Origin: a virus
Lineage: Duplodnaviria; Heunggongvirae; Uroviricota; Caudoviricetes
Virus record (IMG/VR): IMGVR_UViG_2582580966_000018
DNA: 18,422 nt
Direction: 5' to 3' (one strand)
The translations under genes were made by a program, and so were the position numbers. The notes under the pieces were generated by a model. It searched no databases, was not told where the DNA came from, and saw only the letters and a list, made by a program, of their open reading frames with translations. Below are positions 1 to 18,422 of this stretch, one piece after another (the stretch's first letter is position 1; each line of letters begins with the position of its first letter).

Positions 1-399
1 TCACTTCAGCGGGTAGTCATCAAACTCACCAGTCCGCGCGTCATTGATGATGTACGTCACCACCCCCTTCACTACGACTCGTTCCTCACAATCGTCGTCA
101 GTTATCCATGTCTTTTTATCAGCGTGGTCCAGTTCTTCCAGGTGCACCTTTGGCAGCAGCCTGAGACGCAACAGCCGTATCTGGTCATTCAGATGACAAA
201 TCACCAGGCTTCCGTCTACCGGAGTCAGCGATGTGTCCATGACCAGCAGAGCACCTCTCTTGATTCCTTCCCGCCATGATGTAGCAGCGTAACGGATGAA
301 GAATGTCGCCGCTGGTTTTCGTATCAACTCCTTGTCGAGTGAGATCGCATCCTCGTGGTAATCAGCAGCAGGGCTGGGAAACTGTGACATGGCAACCAT
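1..399 (-). CDS. UmuD'-like protein (S24 LexA/UmuD peptidase fold), 132 aa
   Basis: Translation aligns by eye with E. coli UmuD from the FPSPAADY motif onward; the Ser of the catalytic dyad is conserved (TSW vs GDSM). GAGG Shine-Dalgarno 6 nt upstream of ATG at 399. Window starts at its stop codon, so any downstream umuC-like partner is outside the window. Confidence 0.6.
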   Translation of the reverse strand: MVAMSQFPSPAADYHEDAISLDKELIRKPAATFFIRYAATSWREGIKRGALLVMDTSLTPVDGSLVICHLNDQIRLLRLRLLPKVHLEELDHADKKTWITDDDCEERVVVKGVVTYIINDARTGEFDDYPLK

Positions 400-414
400 A
401 ACTCACCTCATTGG

Positions 415-434
415 CACTGTATGTACATACAGTA
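415..434. promoter_or_regulatory. LexA (SOS) box, CTGT-N8-ACAG palindrome
   Basis: Sequence cACTGTATGTACATACAGTa; the 18-bp core 416-433 is a perfect palindrome matching the LexA operator consensus, 16-35 nt upstream of the UmuD'-like start codon. Confidence 0.65.
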
Positions 435-444
435 CCAATGCATG

Positions 445-488
445 GATTTTGATCGTTGCAACCGATCGATTTGAAGATTTTGATCGTT
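445..488. repeat. Two perfect 13-bp direct repeats (GATTTTGATCGTT) 31 bp apart, with three GATC sites (451, 464, 482)
   Basis: Read directly: repeat copies at 445-457 and 476-488, and a CGATCG palindrome between them at 463-468. Lies in the AT-rich divergent intergenic region upstream of the 579..1865 gene. Confidence 0.8.
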
Positions 489-578
489 ATTTCCCATAAC
501 CAAATAGTGAGCAATTTTGGGACATTTATTATAAATTTAAATTGTCTTTAAATATAAATATCCAATCGGTAAATCATC

Positions 579-1865
579 GTGAAAAATAATTCCGCGCTGT
601 TTGTTGGTTCTTTTTTTGAAAGTGACCAAAGCTCAAAAGTAAACCTGGCATTATCTTATGATGGAGAACGATTCGAAAAAATAAAGGCTCAATTCCTTTG
701 GGCTATTGGTGGAACTGGAGAAGTTTTAGGGAGAGACCCATCAATTATTTATCACAACGGTTGGTGGTTAATAGCCGTATCAGGATATACAGAAAACGTT
801 TATGACGTCGATTGCTGGCGCTCACGTGATTTAACCGTGTGGGAACTGGTACGAATTAAGCTTGGCGATACGCCAGTCTGTGGGAAACGATTACCGGGTT
901 CAGATCTGGTGACCACTGACGTGTGGGCTCCTGAATGGTTTGTTGATGACGAAAATCTGTTCCTGATAGTCAGCCTGCGTTATTACAACGATCAGACTGA
1001 CAGTAAAGGTGTAAATGTCAAAAGTTTTAAAACATTCTATTCTGTCTGTTCTGATGTTGAGAGACTGGAGTTTTACGATCCGGTTGCGGTAAATATCGAA
1101 CCAAAAAACATGATTGATTCTGTTTTTTCCAGAATATTCCAGACGTATTACCTGACAATAAAAGATGAAATCACCAAAAAAATTGAGGTGTATTGTTCAA
1201 ATTGTTTCTCAGGACAGTTCACGAAATTATCAGTAATTCCGTTTACTCAGGCGGCGGAAGGCCCGGCGCTGGTTTATTTGCCGGACGGCACGATCAGAAT
1301 CTATGCGGATTTTTTCGACACAAAAAAATGGACTTATTTTGTAGACACGAAAGACTTCGTGACGTTCACGCCAGAGCGCCCCGTTTTGTTTGACGGCAGA
1401 ATTAAGCGCGGGACTATTACAAATGTGCTGAACTGGCGCGATAGTGAAACCGCATTGCAGCAACTGTCGGCGCTGTTCTGTGCAAACTCCGGGGATTTAC
1501 AGCCAGGGAAAATCCACAAGCTCATTGATGTAGCGGGAACGAGCAATATCAACGCTACTGATTTAATCTGGTGGCCTGAAACTGGACATTGTTATTTCAC
1601 CGAGGGGTTATCCGGTAACGTGACAATCAATGCGCTGCCAACTGTTTACCCGGACGGGAGTTCGTTTTATCTGATGGTCCGAAGCGCAACGCCGGGAGCT
1701 GGTGATCTGACGCTTAAACAGGCTGTCGGCGACCTGTACCACCCGGCTAATGGCATGGCGATATTTGATGCTGATTTGGTAGTGGCGGCTGGCGGGAACG
1801 CCGCATCACGTCTGTTTAGAATGGTGTGCTTTGATGGCCAGTTGTGGGTTGAGGGGGTTTTCTGA
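579..1865 (+). CDS. Hypothetical protein, 428 aa; unknown function, AT-rich cargo gene
   Basis: Long uninterrupted ORF. Only possible start is GTG at 579 (in-frame stop at 570-572 just upstream) and there is no clear Shine-Dalgarno. No motif I can assign; the many aromatic/Gly/Asp residues hint at a beta-rich, possibly carbohydrate-active fold, but that is a guess. Confidence 0.55.
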   Translation: MKNNSALFVGSFFESDQSSKVNLALSYDGERFEKIKAQFLWAIGGTGEVLGRDPSIIYHNGWWLIAVSGYTENVYDVDCWRSRDLTVWELVRIKLGDTPVCGKRLPGSDLVTTDVWAPEWFVDDENLFLIVSLRYYNDQTDSKGVNVKSFKTFYSVCSDVERLEFYDPVAVNIEPKNMIDSVFSRIFQTYYLTIKDEITKKIEVYCSNCFSGQFTKLSVIPFTQAAEGPALVYLPDGTIRIYADFFDTKKWTYFVDTKDFVTFTPERPVLFDGRIKRGTITNVLNWRDSETALQQLSALFCANSGDLQPGKIHKLIDVAGTSNINATDLIWWPETGHCYFTEGLSGNVTINALPTVYPDGSSFYLMVRSATPGAGDLTLKQAVGDLYHPANGMAIFDADLVVAAGGNAASRLFRMVCFDGQLWVEGVF

Positions 1866-1899
1866 TATAATTGTGGCTCAATGAAAATTGGGCCACATA

Positions 1900-2961
1900 A
1901 TGAACAATAAAATATTTTCCGTCCAGTATCTTCGTGGAATAGCAGCGCTACTTGTGGTGCTGTACCATTTTTCTTTTTTTACTCCGCGCTGGTTTGCTAA
2001 TTTATTTGCAAATGGCATGGTGGGCGTTGATATTTTTTTCATTATCTCTGGATTTATTATTTATTGGTCAACAATAAATCCTGAGGAATGCAGACCAACG
2101 GTATTTATTGTTAAACGATTCGCCAGAATATACCCGCTATTTTTTGTTGTGTTACTGGTTTCGTTGTTATTGCAACCTGCGCCTGCCACACAATTATCCA
2201 GGGGTTTTCTGGTTCTGCACAACGATTACACACTACCCGCTCCGGCGTTTGGATTTAATCTGCTACCGCCCGCGTGGACATTGACTTATGAAATATCGTT
2301 CTACGCTATTTTCTGTATGTGCGCTGCAATAACGACCCGGTATCGAGGTTCATTGTGTATCGCGCTGCTGATTGCAATCCCGGCAGTGCTACAGGTTGCG
2401 TTTAATGGAGGGTTGTCGTTTAACAGCACAGTCACCGCTATCCCTCCTGCTGACTCGCCGTTTTATGGTCTAATCAGGCTGGCAGGCTCAACGATGTTTT
2501 ATGAGTTTGCGTTTGGGATTATGTCTGGAATGATATTTGAAAGGTTTAAATTAATTCTTCCTAACTTAACTGCTATTACTATAGCAATATTCGCATCGGC
2601 TTTATTTTTCTATTTTTTCTTCACATTCTCAGACCATACCAGCGGTATAGAAGGAATGTTCTTTTTTGCTGCAATATTTTTTGTGGGCGTTTTGATGCTG
2701 GATAAATCAAAGGCGGGAGAGATAAAAGCATTATCAATTCTTGGCGACCTGACATATAGCATTTATCTCTGTCATTGGCTGGTAATGCAGATGGTACAGA
2801 AATTTATTCCGATTGGGGAGTATAAGCACTGGGGCGTCCTTGTCCCCTGCATGCTTGTTGCTTCTCTGATGATGGCATTCGCAGCTAACCGGATAATTGA
2901 AAAACCGTTTATCCGTCTGGCCCGTTCGGCGCTGAAACGCCAGGAGATTACGACGCGGTAG
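1900..2961 (+). CDS. Acyltransferase family 3 integral membrane protein (O-antigen/polysaccharide O-acetyltransferase-like)
   Basis: Strongly hydrophobic multi-helix protein with the N-terminal pattern typical of acyltransferase-3 / Oac-like enzymes (LRGIAALLVVLYHF...GVDIFFIISGF). ATG at 1900 preferred over the track's TTG at 1888. Sits 23 bp after the previous gene, suggesting co-transcription. Confidence 0.7.
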   Translation: MNNKIFSVQYLRGIAALLVVLYHFSFFTPRWFANLFANGMVGVDIFFIISGFIIYWSTINPEECRPTVFIVKRFARIYPLFFVVLLVSLLLQPAPATQLSRGFLVLHNDYTLPAPAFGFNLLPPAWTLTYEISFYAIFCMCAAITTRYRGSLCIALLIAIPAVLQVAFNGGLSFNSTVTAIPPADSPFYGLIRLAGSTMFYEFAFGIMSGMIFERFKLILPNLTAITIAIFASALFFYFFFTFSDHTSGIEGMFFFAAIFFVGVLMLDKSKAGEIKALSILGDLTYSIYLCHWLVMQMVQKFIPIGEYKHWGVLVPCMLVASLMMAFAANRIIEKPFIRLARSALKRQEITTR

Positions 2962-3412
2962 CAGGACGTGGCGGCCATTCAAGGCTGTCACTTAATATCG
3001 CTGCTTCATCATTAAACTTCATTTTCTTCAAGGCATCGATATGAGCAAGCCACTCTTTAAAGGTCGCCTTCTCTTCATCGGTGATGATCTCCAGAATGAG
3101 CTTAGAAGGCCAGTGTTCGCTGCTTATATATGCGTTAGCCGCAGAGATTAACGCATCTCTCTTTGACTCGGCCTGTGCCAGTTTAAGCGCGAACAGTTCT
3201 TCTTTAGTTGGCTCGGGAATTTTTTCCCACGCAGGCATGCCGTCTGGCCCTGCAACCCTTCGCATGCCGTCTTTAACTGTTGGGTAAAATTCGGCGAAAA
3301 CACCCATATCAACCGGCACAGCATCACTGTATTCGTCCGTCTTTAACAGAGAGCTTTCCTTGAAAACAAAAGCGTTGCTTTTGGCACTATATAAAAAATC
3401 TGAATCAGACAT
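2948..3412 (-). CDS. tfa: Tail fibre assembly protein (Tfa family chaperone)
   Basis: C-terminal TDEEKA...W...EWPPRP pattern and N-terminal region resemble lambda Tfa / TfaE. Start codon overlaps the stop of the upstream tail-fibre fragment (TAATG). Converges on and overlaps the acyltransferase 3' end by 14 bp. Confidence 0.75.
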   Translation of the reverse strand: MSDSDFLYSAKSNAFVFKESSLLKTDEYSDAVPVDMGVFAEFYPTVKDGMRRVAGPDGMPAWEKIPEPTKEELFALKLAQAESKRDALISAANAYISSEHWPSKLILEIITDEEKATFKEWLAHIDALKKMKFNDEAAILSDSLEWPPRPATAS

Positions 3413-3847
3413 TACGCTCTCCCGATAGCAATCCAGTTAAAAACTGTTGGCTGCGCAGTAAAGTTGTGGTCGGACGAACTCCAGGTTGCAGAACGAACAT
3501 TAAAGCTCCCTGCGTTAACCTTTTCGGCACCATACACGGTTAAGAGTTGATAGATACCGCCGGAGGCTGTCCATCCAGAGACATGGCCTTCTACTGCAAA
3601 TACCTGGTATGAGCTCATCGCCACACCCATATTCACATTATAAAATCCGTTACTGTCCGTTGTACCTACATCCATCTGGATGATCATATTGCCAGGAAGG
3701 CGAATAACCACACCAGACCCGGTTGTTGTATAGGTAAAGGATGACATATCCGGAACTTGCCCGGTAGCCGGTATAAATCACACACTCTCCGACATACACA
3801 TCATCCGGATGGGCAAACAGCTCTTGTTTGTCTGTGAGCTCTGCCAT
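3412..3847 (-). pseudogene. Side tail fibre C-terminal fragment, frameshifted near 3772-3780
   Basis: Two overlapping minus-strand ORFs (3650..3847 and 3412..3747) in different frames. Reading across the junction gives one continuous ~145-aa product (…YVGECV | IPATGQVPDMSSFTYTTTGSG…). GGAG 3 nt upstream of ATG at 3847. Positioned directly upstream of tfa, as a tail-fibre distal domain would be. Confidence 0.45.
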
Positions 3848-4204
3848 TGTTGGCTCCGTTTATCCGTTAAAAGGGATATCAGTTAAGTTATCCCGTGCAG
3901 GGTATAAGCCATTGTCGAGACCACTCATTGAATGGCCTCTGCAATAACCGATGTCTTTCCATCAGTCCGCCACAACAAAGAATCTTTTTTGCCATAAGGC
4001 AGGAGGTTCATCTTTCAGTGGCTGCCAGTGTTATTTCCCCACTTACTGGCTTGGGTTGTTTCGTGGTACTGCCGTAACTGGTTGCCAAGAATAAATTCCG
4101 GTTTCATTATCAAGCCCACCCGTAGATGGGCTTTGTAATGGATAGCCGTTGCTCAGTTCTCGTAATGCTTTGATTTTTCCGATAACGCAGTTTTGCGTTT
4201 GCCA

Positions 4205-4726
4205 TCAGCACGCGATATCGAGAGTCAACTGCAGTTGCTCGCGCCAGTACTCAACATTTGCTTCAATAACCGGCTTATCCCATCGCCAGCGAGCCATCTC
4301 TCTTGCCCCATTGCTGGCTTTTGATTTCCGGTCATCGCGAATGCGACATGCTTGCTCATATTTCTGCTGCTCAGTCAGTTCACCGCGAAGCAGACTATCA
4401 ATGTGCAGGTCGCACCACACAGCAAAACGAGCATCACACCAACGGGCAAATGCAACTGAAAGTTTTGGATGTAGCCACGTACCACCACCCCTGTCCTTTC
4501 GTGCCTTGCTGGTTTTTACATACCTCGATTGTGAGGGATGTAAAATTTGAGATTCTTTCCCGGTCAACGCTTCGTCTAAAGCACGAACGTATTCAAGCGT
4601 TTCTGCCAAACGCATCCAGTTATCAATGCGTTTTCCAAATCTCTCAGCAACACCTGTGACGTTGATCCAACCATCAGTGTTGAAACTGACAATTTCACCT
4701 TTGTAATTAAGTGGCACGATATTCAT
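4205..4726 (-). CDS. KilA-N domain protein, 173 aa
   Basis: N-terminal region (…FNTDGWINVTGVAERFGKRIDNWMRLAETLEYVRAL…) fits the KilA-N DNA-binding domain pattern. Separated from Rz by tandem terminators, so likely its own transcription unit. Confidence 0.55.
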   Translation of the reverse strand: MNIVPLNYKGEIVSFNTDGWINVTGVAERFGKRIDNWMRLAETLEYVRALDEALTGKESQILHPSQSRYVKTSKARKDRGGGTWLHPKLSVAFARWCDARFAVWCDLHIDSLLRGELTEQQKYEQACRIRDDRKSKASNGAREMARWRWDKPVIEANVEYWREQLQLTLDIAC

Positions 4727-4841
4727 AACGTTTACCTACCATTTGAAATGAACCTTTGCCGCATAGGAAACCAGCCCACCGAGGCTCGCCAGCACTAACT
4801 GGTATCCTCAAAGGCCCATTCCAAAGGGGCAGGTTCGGTGT

Positions 4842-4866
4842 AAAAAACATGCGTTGCGGTACGCAT
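4842..4866 (-). terminator. Intrinsic terminator-like hairpin (second of tandem pair after Rz)
   Basis: Minus strand reads ATGCGT-accgca-ACGCAT followed by TTTTTT. Confidence 0.5.
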
Positions 4867-4870
4867 TTAT

Positions 4871-4896
4871 TGCAAAAAGCCCCGCATCGCGAGGCT
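4871..4896 (-). terminator. Intrinsic terminator downstream of Rz/Rz1
   Basis: Minus strand reads GCCTCGC-gat-GCGGGGC (7-bp stem with one G-U pair) followed by TTTTT. Confidence 0.6.
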
Positions 4897-4927
4897 CATT
4901 AAATTGACTTTGTGATTTGCAAAAAAA

Positions 4928-5386
4928 TTATTTCAGGCATTGCGTCCTGATGTATTCCTGCAGGTAGTTAACCTGCGCGGTTATCTTGTCGATTCCACTT
5001 CGGAGACGGTAATAATTGAGTTCAGCATCTGCTGTAAGTCTTGGGCTTTCTCCATCGCCCATGCTGCTGGCTCCGGTCGTTGACTTTGCACAGGTGGCGG
5101 CGACTTGCAGGCGCTTACGACCAGCAGAAACATCAGCACGGAGACTTTCGATAGTCGCGTTAGCATCAGCAAGCTCCTTTGTATATCTGGCATCGAGTTC
5201 TGCTACATCACGTTGACGCTTCCGCATGTCAGCGATGGTGGCGTTCGCCTTCTCCAGTTCACTGGCCTTGTTATCGCGCTGCTCTTTGTAGGCGATTGCG
5301 TTATCACGGTAATGATTGACCGCCCACGACAGGCAGACGATGATGCAGATAACCAGAGCGGAGATAATCGCGGTTAACCGACTCAT
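4928..5386 (-). CDS. Rz: Rz i-spanin (inner-membrane spanin subunit)
   Basis: From the internal ATG ([30 protein letters not shown]…) the product closely resembles lambda Rz: N-terminal TM anchor then coiled-coil periplasmic domain. The longer ORF-track extension is rejected. Confidence 0.85.
4981..5166 (-). CDS. Rz1: Rz1 o-spanin lipoprotein, embedded in the +1 frame of Rz
   Basis: [27 protein letters not shown]… has a lipoprotein signal with Cys and a proline-rich mature part, nested inside Rz as in lambda. Confidence 0.7.
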
Positions 5387-5474
5387 GACATCAACACCCC
5401 AACGGCCAGAAACCACGGCCACGCATCGTTGCCATTCAATGCGAGCAACGCTGCCATGAAAAAGCAAATCATGC

Positions 5475-5978
5475 TCATTGTTGCCCCCACAAACAGACTT
5501 CACGCTCAATCTCACGACGGGTCATCAGCCCTTTCCATTGCTTACCGCCAGCGTATGTCCAGCGCCGTAGCTGATCACATGCGCCCTTGATATCGCCCTG
5601 GTTTATTTTGCGAAGAAGCGTCGATGTTCTGAAATTGCCTGTGCCCACGTTATAGACGAACGAGTAAAGAGCGCCGCGCGTTGTTTCCGGTATATCGACT
5701 TTGATGTACGGGTTAATTTGTCTGGCGACCGTGGCAAGGTCTTTATTCAGGAGGGCTTTGCATTCTGCTTCGGTATACGTTTTACCGAGCATGATGTCTT
5801 TTCCGGTGTGTCCGTGGCATACAGTCCATACACCAACAATATCTTTGTATGGTATGTAGCTGACACCTTCCAGACCATCGTTACCACTCGGTCCAGTGAT
5901 TAACACAGATGCTATAGCAATAGCCCCGCCACTTATCGCCGCTATTACGCTATTTCGTAGTGCCGGTGACATTGCCAT
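5475..5978 (-). CDS. SAR endolysin, T4-lysozyme family (GH24)
   Basis: Gly/Ala-rich N-terminal signal-anchor-release segment ([17 protein letters not shown]) followed by the canonical E-x8-D-x5-T catalytic triad ([18 protein letters not shown]). Confidence 0.9.
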
Positions 5979-6210
5979 TCAATCTGTCCTCGCGCTCTTT
6001 GCGCTTGTAGTACCAGTTGATGCCAAATGTGCCGACAGTACAAAGAATACCAATGATGACAGCCCAGTCATTCAGGGAGAGAATGCCACCCATCGCAGTC
6101 AGTCCTCCGAAGCTGTAACTGAACCATTCTCTGATTTTGTCCATAGCGCACGTTAATACCCGCTCGACGCTTTCTTTCAGGTATTGAAGGGATTGAGATG
6201 GGCTAAGCAT
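5950..6210 (-). CDS. Class II holin (pinholin-like), two TM segments, charged C-terminus
   Basis: Two hydrophobic segments then KRKEREDR tail. GGAGG 6 nt upstream of ATG at 6210; a second in-frame ATG at 6144 could give a shorter isoform. Sits immediately upstream of the SAR endolysin. Confidence 0.65.
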
Positions 6211-6544
6211 TATTGGCCTCCTGCATCAGGAGAAAGACAATCATGGCGGCGCGGAGAGGTCTGGTATCAAATATTGGGCTTACGCCTTTTGCATCCACAC
6301 ACCATTCAGTTAACTGGTCTAAGATAGAAATCCTGTATTTCTCAATAATCGGCCATGAAGCGCTCGGATCATTGCAGTAGTCAGGCAAATGATTTAATGG
6401 CTCAAAAGTTGTATAAGCATTTCCGTAATACCATTTGTTGGTGTTATTCCCTGATGTTTCCGGTTTACTTGCCCAAAGGCCTTTAAAAATTATGTCTCCT
6501 ACCATTCTGTTAATTTCAAAATCACTTAACTGTGAATAATCCAT
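6203..6544 (-). CDS. nin-region phage protein of unknown function (possibly NinX/DUF-type)
   Basis: ORF between ninE and the holin; GAGG 8 nt upstream of ATG at 6544 ([13 protein letters not shown]…). Family name is from uncertain recall. Confidence 0.5.
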
Positions 6545-6570
6545 TGTCATTTCCTCGCACGATATCTTAG

Positions 6571-6723
6571 CTACCGGATATCCCACAGGTGAGCTGTGTA
6601 ATTGAAGGTTTTTACGTCAGATTCTTTTGGGATTGGCTTGCGTTTATTTCTGGAGCGTTTCGTTGGAAGGTATTTGCAGTTTTCGCAGATGATGTCGGTG
6701 AAACTTCGTCGCTGTCGCCTCAT
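6571..6723 (-). CDS. ninE: NinE
   Basis: [23 protein letters not shown]… matches lambda NinE. AGGAGG 6 nt upstream of ATG at 6723; ATGA overlap with the stop of the methyltransferase gene. Confidence 0.75.
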
Positions 6724-7248
6724 GCCGCCCTCCTGACGCCCTGCCCGATCGCCATCAATGCCGCTTTGGATACGGTAGTAAACATCCGTCGAGGACTGAT
6801 GAACGGTCGCCAAATCAGCAGCATGGAGCCTTTGCTGTTTCCCTTCTTCTCCAGCCCTGTCGATGGTTCGATAAAATTAATCCGTCCATCAGTGATAATG
6901 CGAACTTCGTCGACACTCTCCAGAGCCTTGCTGAACCATCCGACTGACATATCCTCTGGCACAAGCATAACTACCGTCTGTCGCTGTTGTATGCACTGCT
7001 CAGCGGCTTTTTCCACCCACGGCCTGATATTGCTGTACGGTGGGTTATTCCAGATTGCACCGTGGCTTATCCACTCAGAATTTAGCGCGTCGTCGGCCTC
7101 AGTTAACCAGTGAGCGCACAGAGCATTTTTTGTCGCTCGCTGCCGAATCCAGCCAGAATCCAAACTCAATATCCAGTGCATCAAAAAGCCAAAGCGGCGT
7201 TTGCCAGCAGTCCTTGTCGTGTGCTGGCGTATTTGATTTGATAGTCAT
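6720..7248 (-). pseudogene. Phage N6-adenine DNA methyltransferase (Dam-like, NPPY motif), frameshifted in an A6 run
   Basis: N-terminal part (MTIKSNTPAHDKDCWQTPLWLFDALDIEFGFWLDSAASDK) and C-terminal part (NALCAHWLTEADD…WNNPPYS…) lie in two frames. The shift maps to the T6 run at plus 7126-7131; removing one base restores a continuous ~175-aa reading frame. ATGA overlap with ninB stop. Confidence 0.7.
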
Positions 7249-7685
7249 GCAGCCCGATCTCCCCATCGCGCTTTCCATTCGAGAGCCAGTCGCGCTTCGT
7301 CTGACCACTTAACGCCACGCTCTGTACCGAATGCCTGTATAAGCTCTAATAGCTCCGCAAATTCGTTTACACGCATCCTGCTGGTTGACTGGCCTATTAC
7401 CACAAAGCCATTCCCGGCAAGGTTAGGAACAACATCCTGCTGCTTTAATGCTGCGGTAAACACACACTTCCAGCTTTCTGCATCCAGCCAGCGACCATGC
7501 CATTCAACCTGACGAGAGACGTCACCAAGGCAAGCCCAAAGCTTTCGATTCTGGTCTAAGCTGCGGTTGCGTTCCTGAATGGTTACTACGATTGGTTTGG
7601 TTGGGTCTGGAAGAATTTGCTGTACCGCGTGAATAGCGTTTTGCTGATGTGCTGGAGATCGAATTTCAAAGGTTAGTTTTTTCAT
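7245..7685 (-). CDS. ninB: NinB recombination protein
   Basis: From MKKLTFEIRSPAHQQNAIHAVQQILPDPTKP… the product is near-identical to lambda NinB as I recall it. Confidence 0.9.
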   Translation of the reverse strand: MKKLTFEIRSPAHQQNAIHAVQQILPDPTKPIVVTIQERNRSLDQNRKLWACLGDVSRQVEWHGRWLDAESWKCVFTAALKQQDVVPNLAGNGFVVIGQSTSRMRVNEFAELLELIQAFGTERGVKWSDEARLALEWKARWGDRAA

Positions 7686-7701
7686 GACTTCCCTCTCCCC
7701 C

Positions 7702-7733
7702 AAATAAAAAGGCCTGCGATTACCAGCAGGCCT
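7702..7733 (-). terminator. tR2-like intrinsic terminator between ren and ninB
   Basis: Minus strand reads AGGCCTGC-tggtaatc-GCAGGCCT followed by TTTTATTT. Confidence 0.7.
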
Positions 7734-7758
7734 GTTATTAGCTCAGTGATGTAGATGG

Positions 7759-8049
7759 TCATCTTTTAACTCCATATACTGCCAATACCCGTTTCATCGC
7801 GGCACTCTGGCGACACTCCTTAAAAATCAGGTTCGTGCTCATCTTTCCTTCCCGTTCTTCCCTGGTAGCAAATCGGTAATACACCGTTCGCCAGACCTTA
7901 CCTTCGATAACCAGAAGACCTGCCCGTGCCATTTTAGCCGCGGCCTGATTTATGCTGGTTACTGTTGCGCCTGTTAGCGCGGCAACGTCCGGCGCACAGA
8001 AGCTATTATGCGTCCCCAGGTAATGAATAATTGCCTCTTTGCCCGTCAT
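7759..8049 (-). CDS. ren: Ren
   Basis: 96-aa product matches lambda Ren; ATGA overlap with P stop. Confidence 0.9.
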   Translation of the reverse strand: MTGKEAIIHYLGTHNSFCAPDVAALTGATVTSINQAAAKMARAGLLVIEGKVWRTVYYRFATREEREGKMSTNLIFKECRQSAAMKRVLAVYGVKR

Positions 8050-8747
8050 ACACTTGCTCCTTTCAGTCCGAACTTAGCTTTGATTTCTGCGATCTTCGCC
8101 AGAGCCTGTGCACGATTTAGAGGTCTACCGCCCATGACAGGAAGTTGTTTTACTGGTTCAGGGATCGCCTCACCACGGTTAATTCTCGCAGTCATATGGA
8201 CAAGCTCATCTGCGGCCTTACGGCGTAATTCCGCATCAGTAAGCGCATTGGCCCGCATGTTCTGATACAGGTTGGTAACCAGCCAGTAGTGCGCGTTTGA
8301 TTTCCACGGATAAGACTCCGCATCCGGATACAGGCCTCGCTTCCGGCAATACTCGTAAACCATATCAACCAGCTCGCTGACGTTTGGCAGTCCGGCGGTA
8401 ACGGATGCTTCTTCCCGGCACCATGCAACAAACTGCCCGGGTGATGGCAGAAATGGTCGATTCTGCCGACGGGCTACGCGCATTCCTGCGTTAACCTGTT
8501 CCATCGTGGTGATCCCGTTTTCCCGAAAAGCCAGAACCCACTGGCGACGGATTTCGTTCACTTCGTTCTGGTCACGGTTAGCCAGGCTCGCCGGGAAAGT
8601 TGCCAGTAACTGGCTGAACACACCGTTGATGATCTGCGCTACCTGCTGTACCTGCGGCTTTTCGTCGTACTGTTCCGGCATGTTGTTGGCGATCCGACGC
8701 ATCTGCTCACGGTCAAAGTTAACCATCTGTGCGGCGATGTTTTTCAT
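8046..8747 (-). CDS. P: Replication protein P (DnaB helicase loader)
   Basis: 233-aa product matches lambda P (MKNIAAQMVNFDREQMRRIANNMPEQYDEKPQV…). Confidence 0.95.
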   Translation of the reverse strand: MKNIAAQMVNFDREQMRRIANNMPEQYDEKPQVQQVAQIINGVFSQLLATFPASLANRDQNEVNEIRRQWVLAFRENGITTMEQVNAGMRVARRQNRPFLPSPGQFVAWCREEASVTAGLPNVSELVDMVYEYCRKRGLYPDAESYPWKSNAHYWLVTNLYQNMRANALTDAELRRKAADELVHMTARINRGEAIPEPVKQLPVMGGRPLNRAQALAKIAEIKAKFGLKGASV

Positions 8748-9643
8748 AGATCCACCCCGTAAATCCAGTCTGTGTTTGTCAGGTCGAGTTTTGGTTTGCT
8801 GGCTGTCATGCCTGCCTGTTGCTTGTTACGGTTGATTTCGAGTTGGGTCCACTTATCGCGGAGTTTGGCCGGGCTCAGCACGTTACCGGACCAGAAGTTG
8901 TCCTGGCATGCCCAGCGGAACAGCACGCACATGTCACGGTGGTTACGTCCGTCACGTTCACGCATCAGGCGGATATCGTTAGCCCACCCAGCAAAATTCG
9001 GTTTTCTGGCTGATGGTGCGATAGTCTTCACCATGTCAAACATCCACTCTGCGGCGGTCAGGTCTTCTGCTGTCCCCCACTTGCTGCCGCTCTGAATTGC
9101 AGCATCCGGTTTCACCACAGAAAGGTCGTTTTCTGGCTGGTCAGAGGATTCGCCAGAATTCTCTGACGAATAATCTTTTCTTTTTTCTTTTGTAATAGTG
9201 TCTTTTGTGTCCCCCTGTTTTGAGGGATAGCAATCCCCCAATTTGAGGGATGTTTTATCCCTCGTTTTAGGGGATTTTCCCTCGTTTTGAGGGATGCACC
9301 ATTCTGAGATGTTTTTATTTGGTCCAAACATGCCGCCTTGCTGCTTGATAATATTCATTCTGACGAGTTCTAACTTGGCTTCATTGCACCGTTTGACGGG
9401 TAACTTTGTAATCTCGCTAAGTTGAGAATCGGTGATTCTGTCCATTGGTTTATTCCACCCATAGGTTTTACGCAGAATGGCAAGCAGCACTTTAAACTGT
9501 CGCTTGGTCAGATCTGCGCCCGAATAAGCCTCAAGCAGCATATTTGATAGTCTGGCGTAACCATCATCGAGATCTGCCACATTACGCTCCTGTCCGGCAA
9601 AGTTACCTCTGCCGAAGTTGAGTATTTTTGCTGTATTTGTCAT
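8744..9643 (-). CDS. O: Replication initiator O
   Basis: 299-aa product matches lambda O; contains the ori iterons and the EcoRI site (GAATTC at 9157-9162) internally. Confidence 0.95.
   Translation of the reverse strand: MTNTAKILNFGRGNFAGQERNVADLDDGYARLSNMLLEAYSGADLTKRQFKVLLAILRKTYGWNKPMDRITDSQLSEITKLPVKRCNEAKLELVRMNIIKQQGGMFGPNKNISEWCIPQNEGKSPKTRDKTSLKLGDCYPSKQGDTKDTITKEKRKDYSSENSGESSDQPENDLSVVKPDAAIQSGSKWGTAEDLTAAEWMFDMVKTIAPSARKPNFAGWANDIRLMRERDGRNHRDMCVLFRWACQDNFWSGNVLSPAKLRDKWTQLEINRNKQQAGMTASKPKLDLTNTDWIYGVDL
9170..9293. repeat. ori-lambda: four iterons (about 9210-9293) plus adjacent AT-rich unwinding region (about 9170-9209) inside O
   Basis: Repeated TCCCTCAAAACGAGGGA-type units on the minus strand (plus: …ccctgttttgaggga…ccctcgttttagggga…ccctcgttttgaggga) next to an A/T-rich stretch, as in lambda ori. 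Confidence 0.9.
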
Positions 9644-9653
9644 AATGACTCCT

Positions 9654-9730
9654 GTTGATAGATCCAGTAATGACCTCAGAACTCCATCTGGATTTGTTCA
9701 GAACGCTCGGTTGCCGCCGGGCGTTTTTTA
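9654..9730 (+). ncRNA. oop: oop antisense RNA (antisense to the cII 3' end)
   Basis: Plus strand GTTGATAGATCCAGTAATGACC…GCCGCCGGGCGTTTTTTATT matches the lambda OOP RNA as I recall it, ending in a GC-rich hairpin plus U tract. Confidence 0.65.
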
Positions 9731-9969
9731 TTGGTGAGAATCGCAGCAACTTGTCGCGCCAATCGAGCCATGTCGTCGTCAACGACCCCCCATTCAAGAA
9801 CAGCAAGCAGCATTGAGAACTTTGGAATCCAGTCCCTCTTCCACCTGCTGATCTGCGACTTATCAACGCCCACAGCTTCCGCTGTCTTCTCAGTTCCAAG
9901 CATTGCGATTTTGTTAAGCAACGCACTCTCGATTCGTAGAGCCTCGTTGCGTTTGTTTGCACGAACCAT
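9676..9969 (-). CDS. cII: Transcriptional activator CII
   Basis: MVRANKRNEALRIESALLNKIAMLGTEKTAEAVGVDKSQISRWKRDWIPKFSMLLAVLEWGVVDDDMARLARQVAAILTNKKRPAATERSEQIQMEF matches lambda CII. Preceded by AAGGAAATACTTACAT-ATG as in lambda. The ORF-track N-terminal extension is rejected. Confidence 0.95.
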   Translation of the reverse strand: MVRANKRNEALRIESALLNKIAMLGTEKTAEAVGVDKSQISRWKRDWIPKFSMLLAVLEWGVVDDDMARLARQVAAILTNKKRPAATERSEQIQMEF

Positions 9970-10048
9970 ATGTAAGTATTTCCTTAGATAACAATTGATT
10001 GAATGTATGCAAATAAATGCATACACCATAGGTGTGGTTTAATTTGAT

Positions 10049-10080
10049 GCCCTTTTTCAGGGCTGGGATGTGTAAGAGCG
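10049..10080 (-). promoter_or_regulatory. nutR (boxA CGCTCTTACA, boxB GCCCTGAAAAAGGGC) upstream of tR1
   Basis: boxB at plus 10049-10063 and boxA (reverse complement) at 10071-10080, between cro and cII. Confidence 0.8.
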
Positions 10081-10088
10081 GGAATGTC

Positions 10089-11444
<1,356 letters not shown>

Positions 11445-11494
11445 TCCCCACCTCAATCTCGATAACCAAAAAACAAACTATTTTCCGTTTAAAA

Positions 11495-11563
11495 ACAATG
11501 GAGTTTGTTTTTCATGCCCCTTTCTTACAATATTTCTTGTTTACAACATACAATCTTTTTTGT
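11495..11563. promoter_or_regulatory. OL operator region with pL: three 434-type 14-bp sites
   Basis: ACAATGGAGTTTGT (11495-11508), ACAATATTTCTTGT (11527-11540), ACAATCTTTTTTGT (11550-11563), followed by the lambda-like pL transcript start sequence ATCAGCAGGACGCACTGACC near 11575. Confidence 0.8.
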
Positions 11564-11608
11564 AATTTTAAACCATCAGCAGGACGCACTGACCACCATT
11601 GAAGGTGA

Positions 11609-11639
11609 TGCTCTTAAAAATTAAGCCCTGAAGAAGGGC
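11609..11639 (+). promoter_or_regulatory. nutL (boxA GCTCTTAAAAATTAA, boxB GCCCTGAAGAAGGGC)
   Basis: Matches lambda nutL as recalled; lies in the pL leader upstream of N. Confidence 0.85.
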
Positions 11640-11797
11640 AGCATTCAAAGCAGAAGGCTTTGGGGTGTGTGATACGAAACGAAGCATTGGCCGGAAGTGC
11701 GAATCCGGATTAGCTGCAAATGAGCCAATCGTGGGGTGTTTTCGTTCAGGACTACGACTCACACACACCACCAAAGCTAACTGACAAGAGAATCCAG

Positions 11798-12121
11798 ATG
11801 GATGCACAAACACGCCGCCGCGAACGTCGCGCAGAGAAACAGGCTCAATGGAAAGCAGCAAATCCCCTGTTGGTTGGGGTAAGCGCAAAACCAGTTAACC
11901 GCCCTATTCTCTCGCTGAATCGCAAACCGAAATCACGAGTAGAAAGCGCACTGAATCCGATAGACCTTACGGTGCTGGCTGAATACCACGAACAGATTGA
12001 AAGCAACCTGCAACGTATTGAGCGCAAGAATCTTCGAGTTTGGTATAGCAAGCCAAGTGAGTTCGGTATAACTTGTCAAGGAAGACAAAAGGTTAAAGGG
12101 AAATCCATTCCATTGGCATGA
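11798..12121 (+). CDS. N: Antitermination protein N
   Basis: MDAQTRRRERRAEKQAQWKAANPLLVGVSAKPVNRPILSLNRKPKSRVESALNPIDLTVLAEYH… matches lambda N with a few substitutions; includes the arginine-rich boxB-binding motif. The ORF-track upstream extension is rejected. Confidence 0.9.
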   Translation: MDAQTRRRERRAEKQAQWKAANPLLVGVSAKPVNRPILSLNRKPKSRVESALNPIDLTVLAEYHEQIESNLQRIERKNLRVWYSKPSEFGITCQGRQKVKGKSIPLA

Positions 12122-12129
12122 GGTACGTA

Positions 12130-12210
12130 ATGAAGAAAATTGATTACAAGTCCATACCAAAACCAATAGACTCAGCATCAGAGCGAAAAAAAACACAAAA
12201 AAGAGGCTGA
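12130..12210 (+). CDS. Possible small basic peptide, 26 aa (MKKIDYKSIPKPIDSASERKKTQKRG)
   Basis: ATG 6 nt after a GAGG that sits right at the N stop codon. Not in the ORF track because it is under 60 aa. Could be non-coding. Confidence 0.25.
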   Translation: MKKIDYKSIPKPIDSASERKKTQKRG

Positions 12211-12319
12211 AAAATTAGCAAATTATATCAGTTTTATTAGAAACAATGCTCACGGCGATGGCGACAGGAAGTTGCTTTCAGATGCCCGGACCCAAGCGTT
12301 CAGCATACTTCGTAAGCAG

Positions 12320-13000
12320 ATGCAATATCGTCTTCATCCAGGCTACATAATTGAAATTCGCCCGACTGAAAGACAATTGTTCTTATTAAACTCTGTCTTT
12401 GACTTTGTAAACGTAGTTGGAGATCTTATCGACAGGTCTGTAGATAAGGCTCCTGATACAAATAGTTTTCTTCTAACAAATAAAGAATACTTATATGGTA
12501 AATTTGGTATAAACGGATGGCAAAAATATGTACGATTCTTACGTGCATTCGTTGATGCGAATAAAAATTCCGACATGATTTATACATATTTGCCTGGTGG
12601 TAATAATTGTACGCTTTCGGCAGACAATAGAATATTCATACCTATACTTGGTCTTGGGCTGATTAATGCAGTAAATGAAAGAGATGTTATAATTGTTAAG
12701 CAGTGGCGAAAGCATGAGGGATATAGATATCTGCCATGCTTTGATATATTAAAAATACAGAATAAATTCTATGTAAAAATTAAATATAAAGAAGATGTTT
12801 TCTTCCTCAGAAAAAACAAAGATCTTTTACAAGAACTTTCTGGGACAATAGATGTCATCGTAGGTTCTAGGTTTATAAAAGAACTGAAAGAAAGCAGGTC
12901 TTTCTCTCGTGTAGAGATAAGCGAGTCAGAGTTATGGGGTATATCAAATAATCCTGTAAACCACGCTCACCAACGAAATCCAAACAAAAAGTGGTCATAA
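12320..13000 (+). CDS. Hypothetical protein, 226 aa (242 aa if the TTG at 12272 is used); AT-rich accessory gene in the sieB/ral position
   Basis: Long ORF in visibly AT-rich DNA between N and ea10. No TM segments or motifs I recognise. Start is uncertain. Followed directly by an intrinsic terminator. Confidence 0.55.
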   Translation: MQYRLHPGYIIEIRPTERQLFLLNSVFDFVNVVGDLIDRSVDKAPDTNSFLLTNKEYLYGKFGINGWQKYVRFLRAFVDANKNSDMIYTYLPGGNNCTLSADNRIFIPILGLGLINAVNERDVIIVKQWRKHEGYRYLPCFDILKIQNKFYVKIKYKEDVFFLRKNKDLLQELSGTIDVIVGSRFIKELKESRSFSRVEISESELWGISNNPVNHAHQRNPNKKWS

Positions 13001-13024
13001 CCCGCTCAGGCGGGTTTCATTTTC
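13000..13024 (+). terminator. Intrinsic terminator after the accessory gene
   Basis: aCCCGC-tcag-GCGGGt followed by TTCATTTTC. Confidence 0.6.
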
Positions 13025-13142
13025 ACGCAAACAACAGAATAAACACTGCACTGTGTATTCATTCCAACGAGTGAATACACGGAGCAATGTCGCTCGTAAC
13101 TAAACAGGAGTCGACTTGTTCTGATTATTGGAAATCTTCTTT

Positions 13143-13172
13143 GCCCTCCAGTGTGAGGGCGATTTTTTATCT
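13143..13172 (+). terminator. Intrinsic terminator upstream of ea10
   Basis: GCCCTC-cagtgt-GAGGGC followed by GATTTTTTATCT. Confidence 0.6.
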
Positions 13173-13188
13173 GTGAGGATATGAACAG

Positions 13189-13557
13189 ATGTCAAACATC
13201 AAAAAATACATCATTGATTACGACTGGAAAGCATCAATAGAAATTGAAATCGACCATGACGTAATGACAGAGGAAAAACTTCACCAGATTAATAATTTCT
13301 GGTCAGACTCTGAATACCGACTCAATAAACACGGCTCTGTATTAAATGCTGTATTAATCATGCTGGCGCAACATGCTCTGCTTATAGCAATTTCAAGCGA
13401 CTTAAATGCATATGGTGTTGTGTGTGAGTTCGACTGGAATGATGGAAATGGTCAGGAAGGATGGCCTCCAATGGATGGTAGCGAAGGAATAAGAATTACC
13501 GATATCGATACATCAGGAATATTTGATCCAGATGATATGACTATCAAAGCCGCCTGA
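13189..13557 (+). CDS. ea10: Ea10 (lambda early protein, 122 aa)
   Basis: Length and sequence consistent with lambda Ea10 as recalled; GAGGA Shine-Dalgarno upstream; position between the sieB/ral slot and cIII. Confidence 0.75.
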   Translation: MSNIKKYIIDYDWKASIEIEIDHDVMTEEKLHQINNFWSDSEYRLNKHGSVLNAVLIMLAQHALLIAISSDLNAYGVVCEFDWNDGNGQEGWPPMDGSEGIRITDIDTSGIFDPDDMTIKAA

Positions 13558-13629
13558 GCGCGGCGTTACCGCATACCAATAACGCTTCACTCGAGGCGTT
13601 TTTCGTTATGTATAAATAAGGAGCACACC

Positions 13630-13794
13630 ATGCAATATGCCATTGCAGGGTGGCCTGTTGCTGGCTGCCCTTCCGAATCTTTACTTGAACGAATCACCCG
13701 TAAATTACGTGACGGATGGAAACGCCTTATCGACATACTTAATCAGCCAGGAGTCCCAAAAAATGGATCAAACACTTATGGCTATCCAGACTAA
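13630..13794 (+). CDS. cIII: CIII (FtsH inhibitor), 54 aa
   Basis: [54 protein letters not shown] matches lambda CIII. AAGGAG upstream. Missing from the ORF track because it is under 60 aa. Confidence 0.9.
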   Translation: MQYAIAGWPVAGCPSESLLERITRKLRDGWKRLIDILNQPGVPKNGSNTYGYPD

Positions 13795-13927
13795 ATTCAC
13801 TATCGCCACTTTTATTGGCGATGAAAAGATGTTTCGTGAGGCCGTCGACGCTTATAAAAAATGGATATTAATACTGAAACTGAGATCAAGCAAAAGCATT
13901 CACTACCCCCCTTCCCTGTTTTCCTAA
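13763..13927 (+). CDS. kil: Kil (host-killing/FtsZ inhibitor), 54 aa here
   Basis: [34 protein letters not shown]… overlaps the cIII 3' end and the gam 5' end, as lambda kil does. Confidence 0.7.
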
Positions 13928-14277
13928 TCAGCCCGGCATTTCGCGGACGATATTTTCACAGCTATTTCAGGAGTTCAGCCATGAACGCTTATTACATTCA
14001 GGATCGTCTTGAGGCTCAGAGCTGGGCGCGTCACTACCAGCAGATCGCCCGTGAAGAGAAAGAGGCAGAACTGGCAGACGACATGGAAAAAGGCCTGCCC
14101 CAGCACCTGTTTGAATCGCTATGCATCGATCATTTGCAACGCCACGGGGCCAGCAAAAAAGCCATTACCCGTGCGTTTGATGACGATGTTGAGTTTCAGG
14201 AGCGCATGGCAGAACACATCCGGTACATGGTTGAAACCATTGCTCACCATCAGGTTGATATTGATTCAGAGGTATAA
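13861..14277 (+). CDS. gam: Gam (RecBCD inhibitor), long form
   Basis: 138-aa product matches lambda Gam; internal [21 protein letters not shown] start of the short form is present. Confidence 0.9.
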
Positions 14278-14282
14278 AACGG

Positions 14283-15068
14283 ATGAGTACAGCACTCGCA
14301 ACGCTGGCAGGGAAGCTGGCTGAACGTGTCGGCATGGATTCTGTCGACCCACAGGAACTGATCACCACTCTTCGCCAGACGGCATTTAAAGGTGATGCCA
14401 GCGATGCGCAGTTCATCGCATTGTTGATCGTCGCCAACCAGTACGGCCTTAATCCGTGGACGAAAGAAATTTACGCCTTCCCTGATAAGCAGAACGGCAT
14501 CGTTCCGGTGGTGGGCGTTGATGGCTGGTCCCGTATCATCAATGAAAACCAGCAGTTTGATGGCATGGACTTTGAGCAGGACAATGAATCCTGCACATGC
14601 CGGATTTACCGCAAGGACCGTAATCATCCGATCTGCGTTACCGAGTGGATGGATGAATGCCGCCGCGAACCATTCAAAACCCGCGAAGGCAGAGAAATCA
14701 CGGGGCCGTGGCAGTCGCATCCCAAACGGATGTTGCGTCATAAAGCCATGATTCAGTGTGCCCGTCTGGCCTTCGGATTTGCTGGTATCTATGACAAGGA
14801 TGAAGCCGAGCGCATTGTCGAAAATACCGCATACACTGCAGAACGTCAGCCGGAACGCGACATCACTCCGGTTAACGATGAAACCATGCAGGAGATTAAC
14901 ACTCTGCTGATTGCCCTGGATAAAACATGGGATGACGACTTATTGCCGCTCTGTTCCCAGATATTTCGCCGCGACATTCGCGCATCGTCAGAACTGACAC
15001 AGGCCGAAGCAGTGAAAGCTCTTGGATTCCTGAAACAGAAAGCCTCTGAGCAGAAGGTGGCTGCATGA
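14283..15068 (+). CDS. bet: Bet (Red-beta single-strand annealing protein)
   Basis: 261-aa product matches lambda Bet. Confidence 0.95.
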
Positions 15069-18230: not shown

Positions 18231-18422
18231 ATGACCGATACCAGCCTGATTCCTGAGAAAGAAGTGATGAACAAGCTCGGTGTTTCATCACGTCAGACAA
18301 TCTGGAACTATACCAAACGGCACGGATTTCCGAAGCCAGTCAGAACCCACCCCAAATCATACCTTCGTGAAGCTGTTGAAGGGTGGATTCTTAACGGTGG
18401 CGTTAATCAGAAATGCTCCTGA
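18231..18422 (+). CDS. Small HTH protein, AlpA/excisionase-like, 63 aa
   Basis: Small basic protein at the position expected for xis in a lambdoid prophage (…VSSRQTIWNYTKRHGFPKPV…). Stop codon is the last three bases of the window, so an integrase probably follows outside it. Confidence 0.55.
   Translation: MTDTSLIPEKEVMNKLGVSSRQTIWNYTKRHGFPKPVRTHPKSYLREAVEGWILNGGVNQKCS

Follow-up and report, generated by a model that had tools for sequence, protein, structure and literature searches.

Results

The stretch of DNA analysed here (hereafter the window; 18,422 nucleotides, IMG/VR virus record IMGVR_UViG_2582580966_000018) is a defective lambdoid prophage remnant of Escherichia coli. Its cI and cro genes are of the 434 type and its N, O and P genes are lambda-like; in related contigs that reach further left, the element is adjoined by dacD. 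The minus strand carries, in this order, ren, ninB, dam, ninE, ninX, a holin gene, a SAR-endolysin gene and Rz/Rz1. As a preliminary description of the locus had proposed, the lysis cassette directly adjoins the nin region: ninX (DUF2591; 6203-6544, minus strand; PF10765, E = 2.3e-17; 98% DNA identity to mEp332) is the last intact nin gene ahead of the joint described below, and the next ORF on the same strand (5950-6210) has a holin domain. Relatives useful for comparison were found only through an exact-protein look-up of the neighbouring GH43-like gene. Positions 1-3838 of the window gave no DNA matches in the phage collection (distant mode included) or in complete E. coli genomes, and the unassigned ORFs gave no defence-system match with PADLOC.

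The ORF at 5950-6210 encodes an 86-aa chimera in which NinF residues 1-22 are joined in frame to holin residues 4-67. Its 5' part (6145-6210, minus strand) comprises the ninF start and codons 1-22, which are identical to NinF 1-22 of a related contig, L007 (CP170296.1). This part is matched by phrog_672 at positions 1-22 of 58 only, and the ninX-ninF loci of E. coli match the window down to position 6144. The NinF family PF05810 gave no match in the window's ORFs or in frame scans, and the Cys-rich full-length form of about 58 aa is absent. The remainder (5950-6144, minus strand) encodes residues 4-67 of an HP1-family class II holin, 100% identical to the Emek holin by tblastn, and PF16080 is matched at residues 24-72 of the 86-aa ORF (E = 8.5e-21; 74.2 bits against a gathering cut-off of 28.8). 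Holin homology begins only at an internal ATG (6144-6142); the holin part is without its first three codons (MYR), its own Shine-Dalgarno sequence, its leader stem-loop and the native MYRM dual start. Among the 15 members listed for a protein cluster of 219, 14 are 66-67 aa in length and only the chimera has 86 aa.

It had been noted at the outset that the holin start overlaps the end of the nin region by 8 bp and follows a strong GGAGG. Both features are present, but both belong to ninF and not to the holin. The chimera's ATG (6210-6208) overlaps the ninX stop codon (6205-6203) by 8 bp, and the GGAGG Shine-Dalgarno sequence of ninF (6217-6221, minus strand), with a 6-nt spacer to the ATG at 6210, now serves the chimera, which is translationally coupled to ninX on this strong site. 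Gene calls in two related records (L008 and L011) start instead at the internal ATG at 6144 and give a 64-aa product. No Shine-Dalgarno sequence lies at a usable distance from that codon; the 64-aa call is doubtful, and translation from the internal native ATG is conceivable. The NinF-derived extension of 22 residues, which include K12, E13, E16 and R17, has a net charge of zero and might be tolerated. In its hydropathy profile the holin has a first segment that is weakly hydrophobic and a second that is strongly so, which is no more than suggestive of a pinholin, whose small heptameric channels depolarise the membrane and whose TMD1 leaves the bilayer. If the protein acts like the phage 21 pinholin, the extension would probably hinder the N-terminal change of topology required for triggering, leaving the chimera as a weak or antiholin-like protein.

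The rest of the cassette is intact. The gene at 5475-5978 (minus strand) encodes a SAR-type endolysin of 167 aa (PF00959, E = 8.8e-46) that is 100% identical to the Emek lysin, and its translation has an N-terminal Gly/Ala/Ser-rich membrane segment at residues ~9-28 and an E37-x8-D46-x5-T52 triad. Rz, the inner-membrane spanin subunit (4928-5386, minus strand; 152 aa; PF03245, E = 1.4e-40), is also called at the identical length of 152 aa in L007 and L008. The outer-membrane lipoprotein subunit Rz1 (4981-5166, minus strand; PF06085, E = 2.4e-20) is nested within Rz in another frame and contains the lipobox VSAC, which gives the pair the features of a two-component spanin. Just downstream of Rz, a terminator-like hairpin with a T run (4849-4866, minus strand) occupies the position of the terminator annotated in Emek. 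With such a weakened holin, lysis after induction would depend for the most part on the SAR endolysin, released slowly and spontaneously, and on the spanins; it is plausible that the element is able to lyse.

The suggestion that the locus has neither a Q gene nor a late promoter was confirmed by three types of search. With tblastn, four Q proteins (SfI, Emek/lambda, mEp332 and STEC1588/82 types) gave a best E value of 0.15 anywhere in the window. Positions 3800-8102 of the minus strand, scanned against Pfam in each frame with stops masked, matched no Q family; the matches were confined to NinB, Dam, NinE, NinX, holin, lysozyme, Rz, Rz1 and KilA-N. A Q gene hidden in a small ORF was ruled out, as the stretch from ren to the holin is wholly accounted for by NinB, Dam, NinE, NinX and the truncated NinF. 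A minus-strand promoter search from pR (10360-10332) to the lysis genes found no promoter-like site; pR', qut and tR' are absent between the nin genes and the holin in the window.

In the minus-strand stretch scanned downstream of cro, the sole promoter-like site upstream of the lysis genes is a pR-like promoter found in the promoter scan (TTGACA-17-GAAAAT; 10332-10360). The nutR boxB, GCCCTGAAAAAGGGC (10049-10063, minus strand), and the nutL boxB (11625-11639, plus strand) are exact matches, with 0 expected by chance for each. The antiterminator N (11798-12121, plus strand; 107 aa; PF11438) is full length, sharing 99% identity with STEC1588 N over 107/107 residues, and the boxB hairpins lie downstream of both pR and pL, as in N/nut early antitermination. 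The cI repressor (10411-11043, plus strand) has HTH and S24 domains, as taken from the Pfam results for the identical gene in L008, and is 100% identical over 210 aa to the STEC1588 LexA-family repressor; cro, cII, O and P are full length, as are N and cI. A tR2-like intrinsic terminator is located upstream of the lysis genes, between ren and ninB (7710-7733, minus strand). With the late promoter gone, transcription would reach the lysis genes only from pR, at the far end of its operon; for this, cI would have to be lost, and both tR1 and the tR2-like terminator would have to be read through by way of N and nutR. Because they lie distal to pR and would need this read-through, the lysis genes appear to have become delayed-early genes by accident.

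Comparison with sister contigs places the event directly. L007 and L013 share 100% identity with the window over the 6,145 and 3,211 bases flanking the joint, and L010 differs by one mismatch across the same flanks. In all three, the two flanking blocks lie 2,511 bp apart, with an extra segment at the position of the joint; in L007, window positions 1-6145 correspond to 9423-15567 and positions 6144-9354 to 18077-21287, both at 100.000% identity. The joint (6144-6145) falls at a 2-bp TA microhomology common to the ninF and holin sides: in a three-way alignment, ninF ...TGCGC/TAACTGC and holin ...GTACCG/TATGGAC give ...TGCGCTATGGAC. The missing 2,511 bp, whose contents were read from Pfam tags, translations, and tRNA and promoter calls in the sisters, contain ninF codons 23-58, orf89, ybcO, rusA, ninH, Q and pR'-qut with the neighbouring 6S/tR' region, and further tRNA-Asn, tRNA-Thr, and the leader of the holin gene together with its first 8 bases. 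Q is a lambda/P22-type protein of 207 aa (PF03589) in L007, L010, L013 and a further Q+ sister, L014. The pR' of L007 (TTGACT-17-TAAATT) falls within the deleted piece, and over the first 100 bases past Q the identity is 95% to the part of Emek with the annotated qut site. The piece also occurs in viable phages, with 100% coverage at 97.1% identity in phiv205-1 and 89% coverage in Kapi1 and mEp506. STEC1588 and NT1F25 were unsuitable for locating the endpoints, having the early region in common but different lysis and Q modules, as was SfI, which spans both sides as a mosaic only.

One very recent 2,511-bp deletion between two TA dinucleotides removed the late-gene switch. Of the two origins put forward in the preliminary description, the sisters carrying the extra segment directly demonstrate the first, a deletion by which the lysis genes were joined to the early-right operon, and the alignment to relatives that it had called for places the deletion endpoints at 6145/6144. 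The window is the derived state, because conservation is seen for NinF at its full length of 58 aa and for the holin at 67 aa. Were the window viewed alone, its tight overlap and good Shine-Dalgarno sequence would resemble a designed operon, as expected of a phage type that never had Q and whose lysis genes are normally delayed-early. However, the ORF combines parts of two genes, each of which stands whole and on its own in sisters whose flanks are identical or nearly so, and the piece with Q and pR' is present both in these sisters and in viable phages. The chance that the arrangement is native is close to nil.

An exact 30-mer spanning the joint is present in four records: L005 (Logan SRR1186762, a contig seen in 5 samples), L008 (GCA_000687025.1), L011 (GCA_000704585.1; 2 SNPs from the window) and L015 (IMG/VR). 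None of 5,426 complete E. coli genomes searched with the whole window and a 221-bp joint probe spans the joint, and on the ninF side the matches end at 6144; the GTDB species representatives, scanned for the exact 30-mer, yielded 0 matches. Every record with the joint could come from short-read assemblies of related isolates, which leaves a very slight chance that the contiguity reflects an assembly or sequencing artefact in the form of a collapsed or chimeric contig. Yet at least four records that were deposited or assembled separately have an identical joint, and SNPs elsewhere distinguish two of them from each other; the 2 bp shared at the joint are far too short to mislead an assembler, and the sisters were assembled with the segment, which is therefore not hard to assemble.

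The element had been losing genes before Q was lost. An older joint, at approximately 3772-3839, marks a deletion of virion genes: an Emek-like late-region end extends down to 3839 and the 3' end of a tail-fibre gene up to 3772, so that the DUF2560/orf80/KilA-N region now adjoins what is left of a 243-codon tail-fibre gene, its last 111 codons. Two related contigs (L009 and L012) continue at this point into the 243-aa tail fibre, baseplate and tail genes, which bears out the earlier view of the window as a defective prophage with its virion genes missing. In ninE (6571-6723, minus strand), alignment with mEp332 reveals a premature stop (TGG to TAG at 6571-6573) that shortens the product to 50 aa from 58; the Pfam NinE profile spans 1-58 through this stop. 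The dam gene (6720-7248, minus strand) is a pseudogene with a +1 frameshift in the A6 run at 7126-7131, a single-base gap relative to mEp332, and the Dam profile is divided between two frames. Both the dam frameshift and the ninE nonsense codon are also found in the Q+ sisters, and L014 has undergone a further deletion, of Rz and KilA-N. Since the Q+ sister is already virion-less, the virion-less lytic state did not arise from the 2,511-bp deletion, which would represent neutral decay in an element that was no longer viable as a virus and not an evolved regulatory design.

Discussion

The locus very probably records a recent deletion in a decaying prophage, of which the NinF::holin fusion and the pR/N wiring are neutral consequences. 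The case is one of ordinary prophage decay, not of new lysis control, and the current view of lambdoid regulation is not challenged. In annotations, the ORF should be labelled as a ninF'-'holin fusion and not as an intact holin.

We also considered adaptive rewiring, by which the deletion was selected because it made the virion-less remnant a Q-independent, SOS- and N-dependent module for early autolysis, the chimera being a working holin with new timing and the payoff being, for example, release of cell contents or quick killing of induced cells. Selection for a working fusion would be expected to give an in-frame joint and to keep a strong Shine-Dalgarno sequence, as is the case here; the endolysin, Rz and Rz1 are identical or nearly so (100% or close to it) to those of a viable phage, and the deletion form is found in several records. 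However, one such deletion in three would be in frame by chance, and the carriers may be a single clone. The flanks differ by only 0-1 SNP from those of the Q+ sisters over 9.3 kb, and the deletion is therefore too recent to show maintenance. A Q+ sister would already lyse without virions, so that there is no obvious gain, and other lesions (the dam frameshift, the ninE stop and the deletion in L014) are accumulating. We consider selection for such a module improbable. It is just as improbable that the fusion is a working suicide cassette for early lysis, kept by the host lineage, driven on SOS induction by pR/N independently of Q and equipped with a NinF-tagged holin of altered timing alongside the SAR endolysin and spanins; if it were, the cassette could serve, for example, to abort infection or to set cell contents free, and nature would have provided a test of how N-terminal extensions retime the HP1-type holin family.

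Read as decay, the locus offers a clean and datable stepwise series at one chromosomal site, with complete-tail, virion-less Q+ and virion-less Q-minus forms. These three states have identical or near-identical flanks, and the Q-minus joint is a 2-bp microhomology. The Q+ and Q-minus forms also constitute a natural isogenic pair, in which the cassette is either under Q/pR' with a dual-start holin or under pR/N with a 22-residue extension, and which could be used for testing lysis timing and the rules of holin topology.

The reference arrangement is the lambda/P22-type late module (Q, pR', qut, tR' and S-R-Rz/Rz1), which is found in the Q+ sister CP170296.1, phiv205-1, Kapi1, mEp506 and Emek. 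The window resembles this module in its upstream nin genes and downstream lysis cassette, and it matches Emek at 100% identity in holin residues 4-67, the endolysin and the KilA-N protein. It differs in being without the segment that runs from within ninF through Q to the holin leader and in having its lysis genes fused in frame to ninF. The cryptic prophages DLP12, Qin and Rac of E. coli K-12 have likewise decayed stepwise through deletions and point lesions, with virion genes deleted and parts of the early and lysis regions kept. DLP12 and Qin retain a Q homologue (quuD and quuQ, respectively) upstream of the holin, whereas in the window Q and the late promoter have been precisely excised, creating a gene fusion. 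In contrast to DLP12, Qin and Rac, the window has kept its immunity, N, O and P genes, all of them intact.

The native holin and its partner also resemble S21 68/S21 71 and R21 of phage 21. In both systems, a small holin with two TMDs, of which TMD1 is weakly hydrophobic, has a dual start of the form M-x-x-M-D-K-I (MYRMDKI in the native holin, MKSMDKI in S21), and the partner endolysin has an N-terminal SAR-like segment and an E-x8-D-x5-T triad. In dual-start systems, the antiholin has one N-terminal positive charge more than the holin, and SAR endolysins are the partners of pinholins (PMC9636201); here the adjacent lysozyme is such a partner. The window's holin differs from S21 in belonging to the HP1 family (PF16080) and not the P21 family, and in having its dual start replaced by 22 residues of NinF. 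A BLASTP comparison of the holin with the S21-like holin of SfI detected no significant similarity (E = 0.26), and the P21 holin family PF04971 scored 18.5 bits, under its cut-off of 26, which makes application of the pinholin topology model to this HP1-type holin uncertain.

Finally, transcription of lysis genes from pR has a counterpart in lambda itself. There, Q-independent, N-modified transcription from pR reaches the lysis genes as a minor leak past pR'/tR', whereas in the window this N-dependent pR route would be the sole route to the lysis genes.

Results

In the window's lambdoid prophage, cI lies at 10411-11043 (+) and the early-right operon occupies the minus strand. After cro and cII, which lie between cI and O, come O (8744-9643), P (8046-8747), ren (7759-8049), ninB (7245-7703), dam and ninE, ninX (6203-6544), an 86-aa ORF with a holin domain (5950-6210), lysozyme (5475-5978), Rz (4928-5386) with Rz1 embedded in it (4981-5166), and a KilA-N gene (4205-4726). 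The pL arm (N, cIII, kil, gam, bet, exo and ea genes) runs rightward. Compared with an E. coli Stx1 prophage, N, cI, cro, cII and P are full length at 99-100% identity, and O is full length at 94.6%; the intact N, O and P are consistent with the view, taken in a preliminary description of this DNA, that the element can still replicate.

That description also held that neither a Q gene nor a late promoter is present, and both absences were confirmed. tblastn searches of the window with four Q proteins (SfI, Emek, mEp332 and STEC1588) gave a best E value of 0.15, and a three-frame Pfam scan of the minus strand over 3800-8102 returned no Q family, the matches being NinB, Dam, NinE, NinX, holin, lysozyme, Rz, Rz1 and KilA-N only. 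Consensus scanning detected a pR-like promoter (10360-10332, -) and an additional promoter-like site upstream of it, inside cI (11067-11040, -); the same scan found no promoter-like sites on the minus strand from pR to the lysis genes.

The 86-aa ORF opens with an ATG at 6210, so that its first 8 bp coincide with the end of ninX, and a GGAGG precedes this ATG at a distance of six bases. DNA comparison divides this ORF into two parts: lambda-like phages, mEp332 among them, align down to position 6144, as do ninX-ninF loci in E. coli by the hundred, and the P22-like Salmonella phage Emek aligns from 6145 downwards. Residues 1-22 are the NinF N-terminus, while residues 23-86 equal residues 4-67 of a 67-aa holin with the native start MYRMDKI. 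PHROG profiles agree independently, with positions 1-22 matching phrog_672 (58 aa) and positions 18-83 a holin family. These sequence comparisons show the ORF to be an in-frame ninF'-'holin fusion, and it follows from the split that the strong Shine-Dalgarno and the 8-bp overlap, correctly seen before and ascribed to the holin start, are those of ninF. The native holin ATG (6144) is without a Shine-Dalgarno at usable distance because the holin's own leader (CCCCTCAATGAAGGGGTAGAGC) was deleted; a 64-aa holin form is nevertheless annotated by two gene callers, and the case serves as an annotation warning.

Looking for exact copies of the protein encoded by the neighbouring GH43-like gene retrieved the same chromosomal site from many E. 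coli assemblies. The Pfam tags of its neighbours fit what we take, from the K-12 map, to be dacD, sbmC, yeeA, yeeX and the CP4-44 island. Three states were found there: a fuller prophage with a 243-aa tail fibre and baseplate and tail genes (contigs L009 and L012); a virion-less, Q-bearing form with the window's remnant plus extra genes from ninF to holin (L007, which is CP170296.1, L010, L013 and L014); and a virion-less form without Q in which, as in the window, holin directly follows ninX (L008 and L011). L007 and L013 match window 1-6145 and 6144-9354 at 100.000% identity, L010 with a single mismatch, and in all three contigs 2,511 bp separates the two matching blocks. At the joint, ninF (ACGTGCGC, continuing TAACTGC) and holin (ATGTACCG, continuing TATGGAC) meet as ACGTGCGCTATGGAC, with TA common to both sides. 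Since NinF is widespread as the complete protein and the holin as the 67-aa form, the window is the derived state, produced by a deletion here and not by an insertion in its sisters. Alignment to relatives, as the preliminary description had proposed, thus placed the endpoints to the base and upheld its suggestion that a deletion fused the lysis genes to the early operon. Its other suggestion, a native delayed-early design, is refuted by the chimeric ORF and by sisters that keep the 2,511 bp between the same flanks.

An assembly artefact is also contradicted, as a 30-mer across the joint was found in four other records: L005 (Logan assembly of SRR1186762, a contig seen in five samples), L008 (GCA_000687025.1, 100% identical to the window across 11,865 bases), L011 (GCA_000704585.1, two SNPs relative to the window) and L015 (an IMG/VR contig). 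GTDB species representatives lack the 30-mer, and none of 5,426 complete E. coli genomes has the joint; the deletion is therefore rare and restricted to a narrow lineage. The identical or near-identical flanks of forms with and without Q indicate that it is very recent. Its mere presence supports no inference on selection.

The extra genes of the four Q-bearing contigs encode NinF (58 aa), orf89, YbcO, RusA, NinH and Q (207 aa, PF03589), followed by a 673-bp spacer and the 67-aa holin. Within the missing piece lies a promoter resembling pR' (TTGACT-17-TAAATT), and the 100 bases following Q are 95% identical to an Emek stretch with an annotated qut site. Beyond the qut-like part, the sequence presumably corresponds to 6S RNA and tR' of lambda; a simple terminator scan of the piece did not flag tR'. 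Genes for tRNA-Asn(GTT) and tRNA-Thr(TGT) (L007 15820-15974, -) sit between the late promoter region and holin, a position like that annotated in SfI and mEp506, and no tRNA genes were found in the window. The viable phage phiv205-1 carries the whole piece (100% coverage, 97.1% identity).

Other lesions were identified by comparison with mEp332. dam is frameshifted (+1) within an A6 run (7126-7131), and TGG to TAG at 6571-6573 shortens NinE from 58 to 50 aa; both are common to the Q-bearing sisters and are therefore older than the Q deletion. In an earlier deletion, with its joint at ~3772-3839 in the stretch 3412-3839, the DUF2560/orf80 region after KilA-N came to abut a tail-fibre remnant, the last 111 codons of a 243-codon gene. 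This event took all head, tail and packaging genes; L009 and L012 keep Baseplate_J, Phage_Wedge1, Dit-like and other tail genes at that place, and the element is indeed a defective prophage. A separate deletion in the Q-bearing L014 (12851-12860, equivalent to window 3867-5370) takes KilA-N and most of Rz, Rz1 included, so this remnant is still being eroded, and independently in different copies.

Window 1-3838 holds a UmuD-like S24 ORF (1-399, -), a 428-aa GH43-like protein (579-1865, +) that weakly matches a family of phage tail proteins, an acyltransferase-3 (1888-2961, +) and a gene for tail-fibre assembly (2948-3412, -). Neither the phage collection nor the complete E. coli genomes gave a DNA match to this stretch, yet several draft E. 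coli contigs carry it beside dacD at 99.97-100% identity. It resembles a moron or a module for surface modification, placed at the tail end of the prophage. ORF 10968-11444 (+; phrog_2651) follows cI immediately, where lambda has rexAB; its N-terminus resembles a signal peptide, and it is a candidate for a moron expressed in the lysogen. Just downstream of N, ORF 12272-13000 (+) is low in GC (about 36%) and may be N-terminally truncated: its alignment to phrog_12139 does not start until position 48 of the 289 in the profile, and its STEC1588 homologue has 289 aa. Its last 20 residues match a Nun-like transcription-termination-factor family (E 3.5e-05), and PADLOC gave no match. The last ORF (18231-18422, +; MTDTSLIPEKEVMNKLGVSS) looks by eye like an AlpA/excisionase-type small DNA-binding protein. 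It is unlike Xis of the STEC1588 relative, which is of the lambda type and gave no tblastn match in the window. The integrase sits beyond the window end.

Discussion

With pR' gone, the pR transcript would be the sole route to the lysis genes, requiring cI inactivation and the action of N at nutR (exact boxB at 10049-10063, -) for passage through tR1 and a tR2-like hairpin (7733-7710, -). Between this hairpin and a terminator-like site after Rz (4866-4849, -), no further such sites were found on the minus strand. The lysis genes would thus have become delayed-early genes accidentally. Given ninF's GGAGG and coupling to ninX, the chimera should be translated efficiently.

The holin's first segment is weakly and its second strongly hydrophobic, and its native start follows the pattern MxxMDKI; S21 starts MKSMDKI. 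Its partner is a SAR-type endolysin. Together these features make a pinholin-like mechanism plausible, although a sequence test of S21 family membership failed (BLASTP E 0.26). Pinholins are partnered by SAR endolysins, and in dual-start holins one extra N-terminal positive charge turns holin into antiholin (PMC9636201). The 22-residue extension is hydrophilic, with two basic and two acidic residues, and would probably hamper or stop the N-terminus from crossing the membrane; on balance, we lean towards predicting a weakened or antiholin-like product. As studies of P1 Lyz and R21 indicate, SAR endolysins can be released spontaneously from the membrane at a low rate. By such release, induced cells would still lyse, late and raggedly. 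Any ability to lyse without virions, also suggested in the preliminary description, would be independent of the Q deletion, because the Q-bearing sister is equally virion-less.

Besides the annotation warning, the main value of the case is that the forms with and without Q make up a natural isogenic pair on which lysis timing could be studied. An in-frame ninF-holin fusion with an otherwise intact lysis cassette under pR/N is a variant that we did not find described, no dedicated literature search having been made. The process is an ordinary one, microhomology-mediated deletion in a decaying prophage, and all the parts belong to well-known families.
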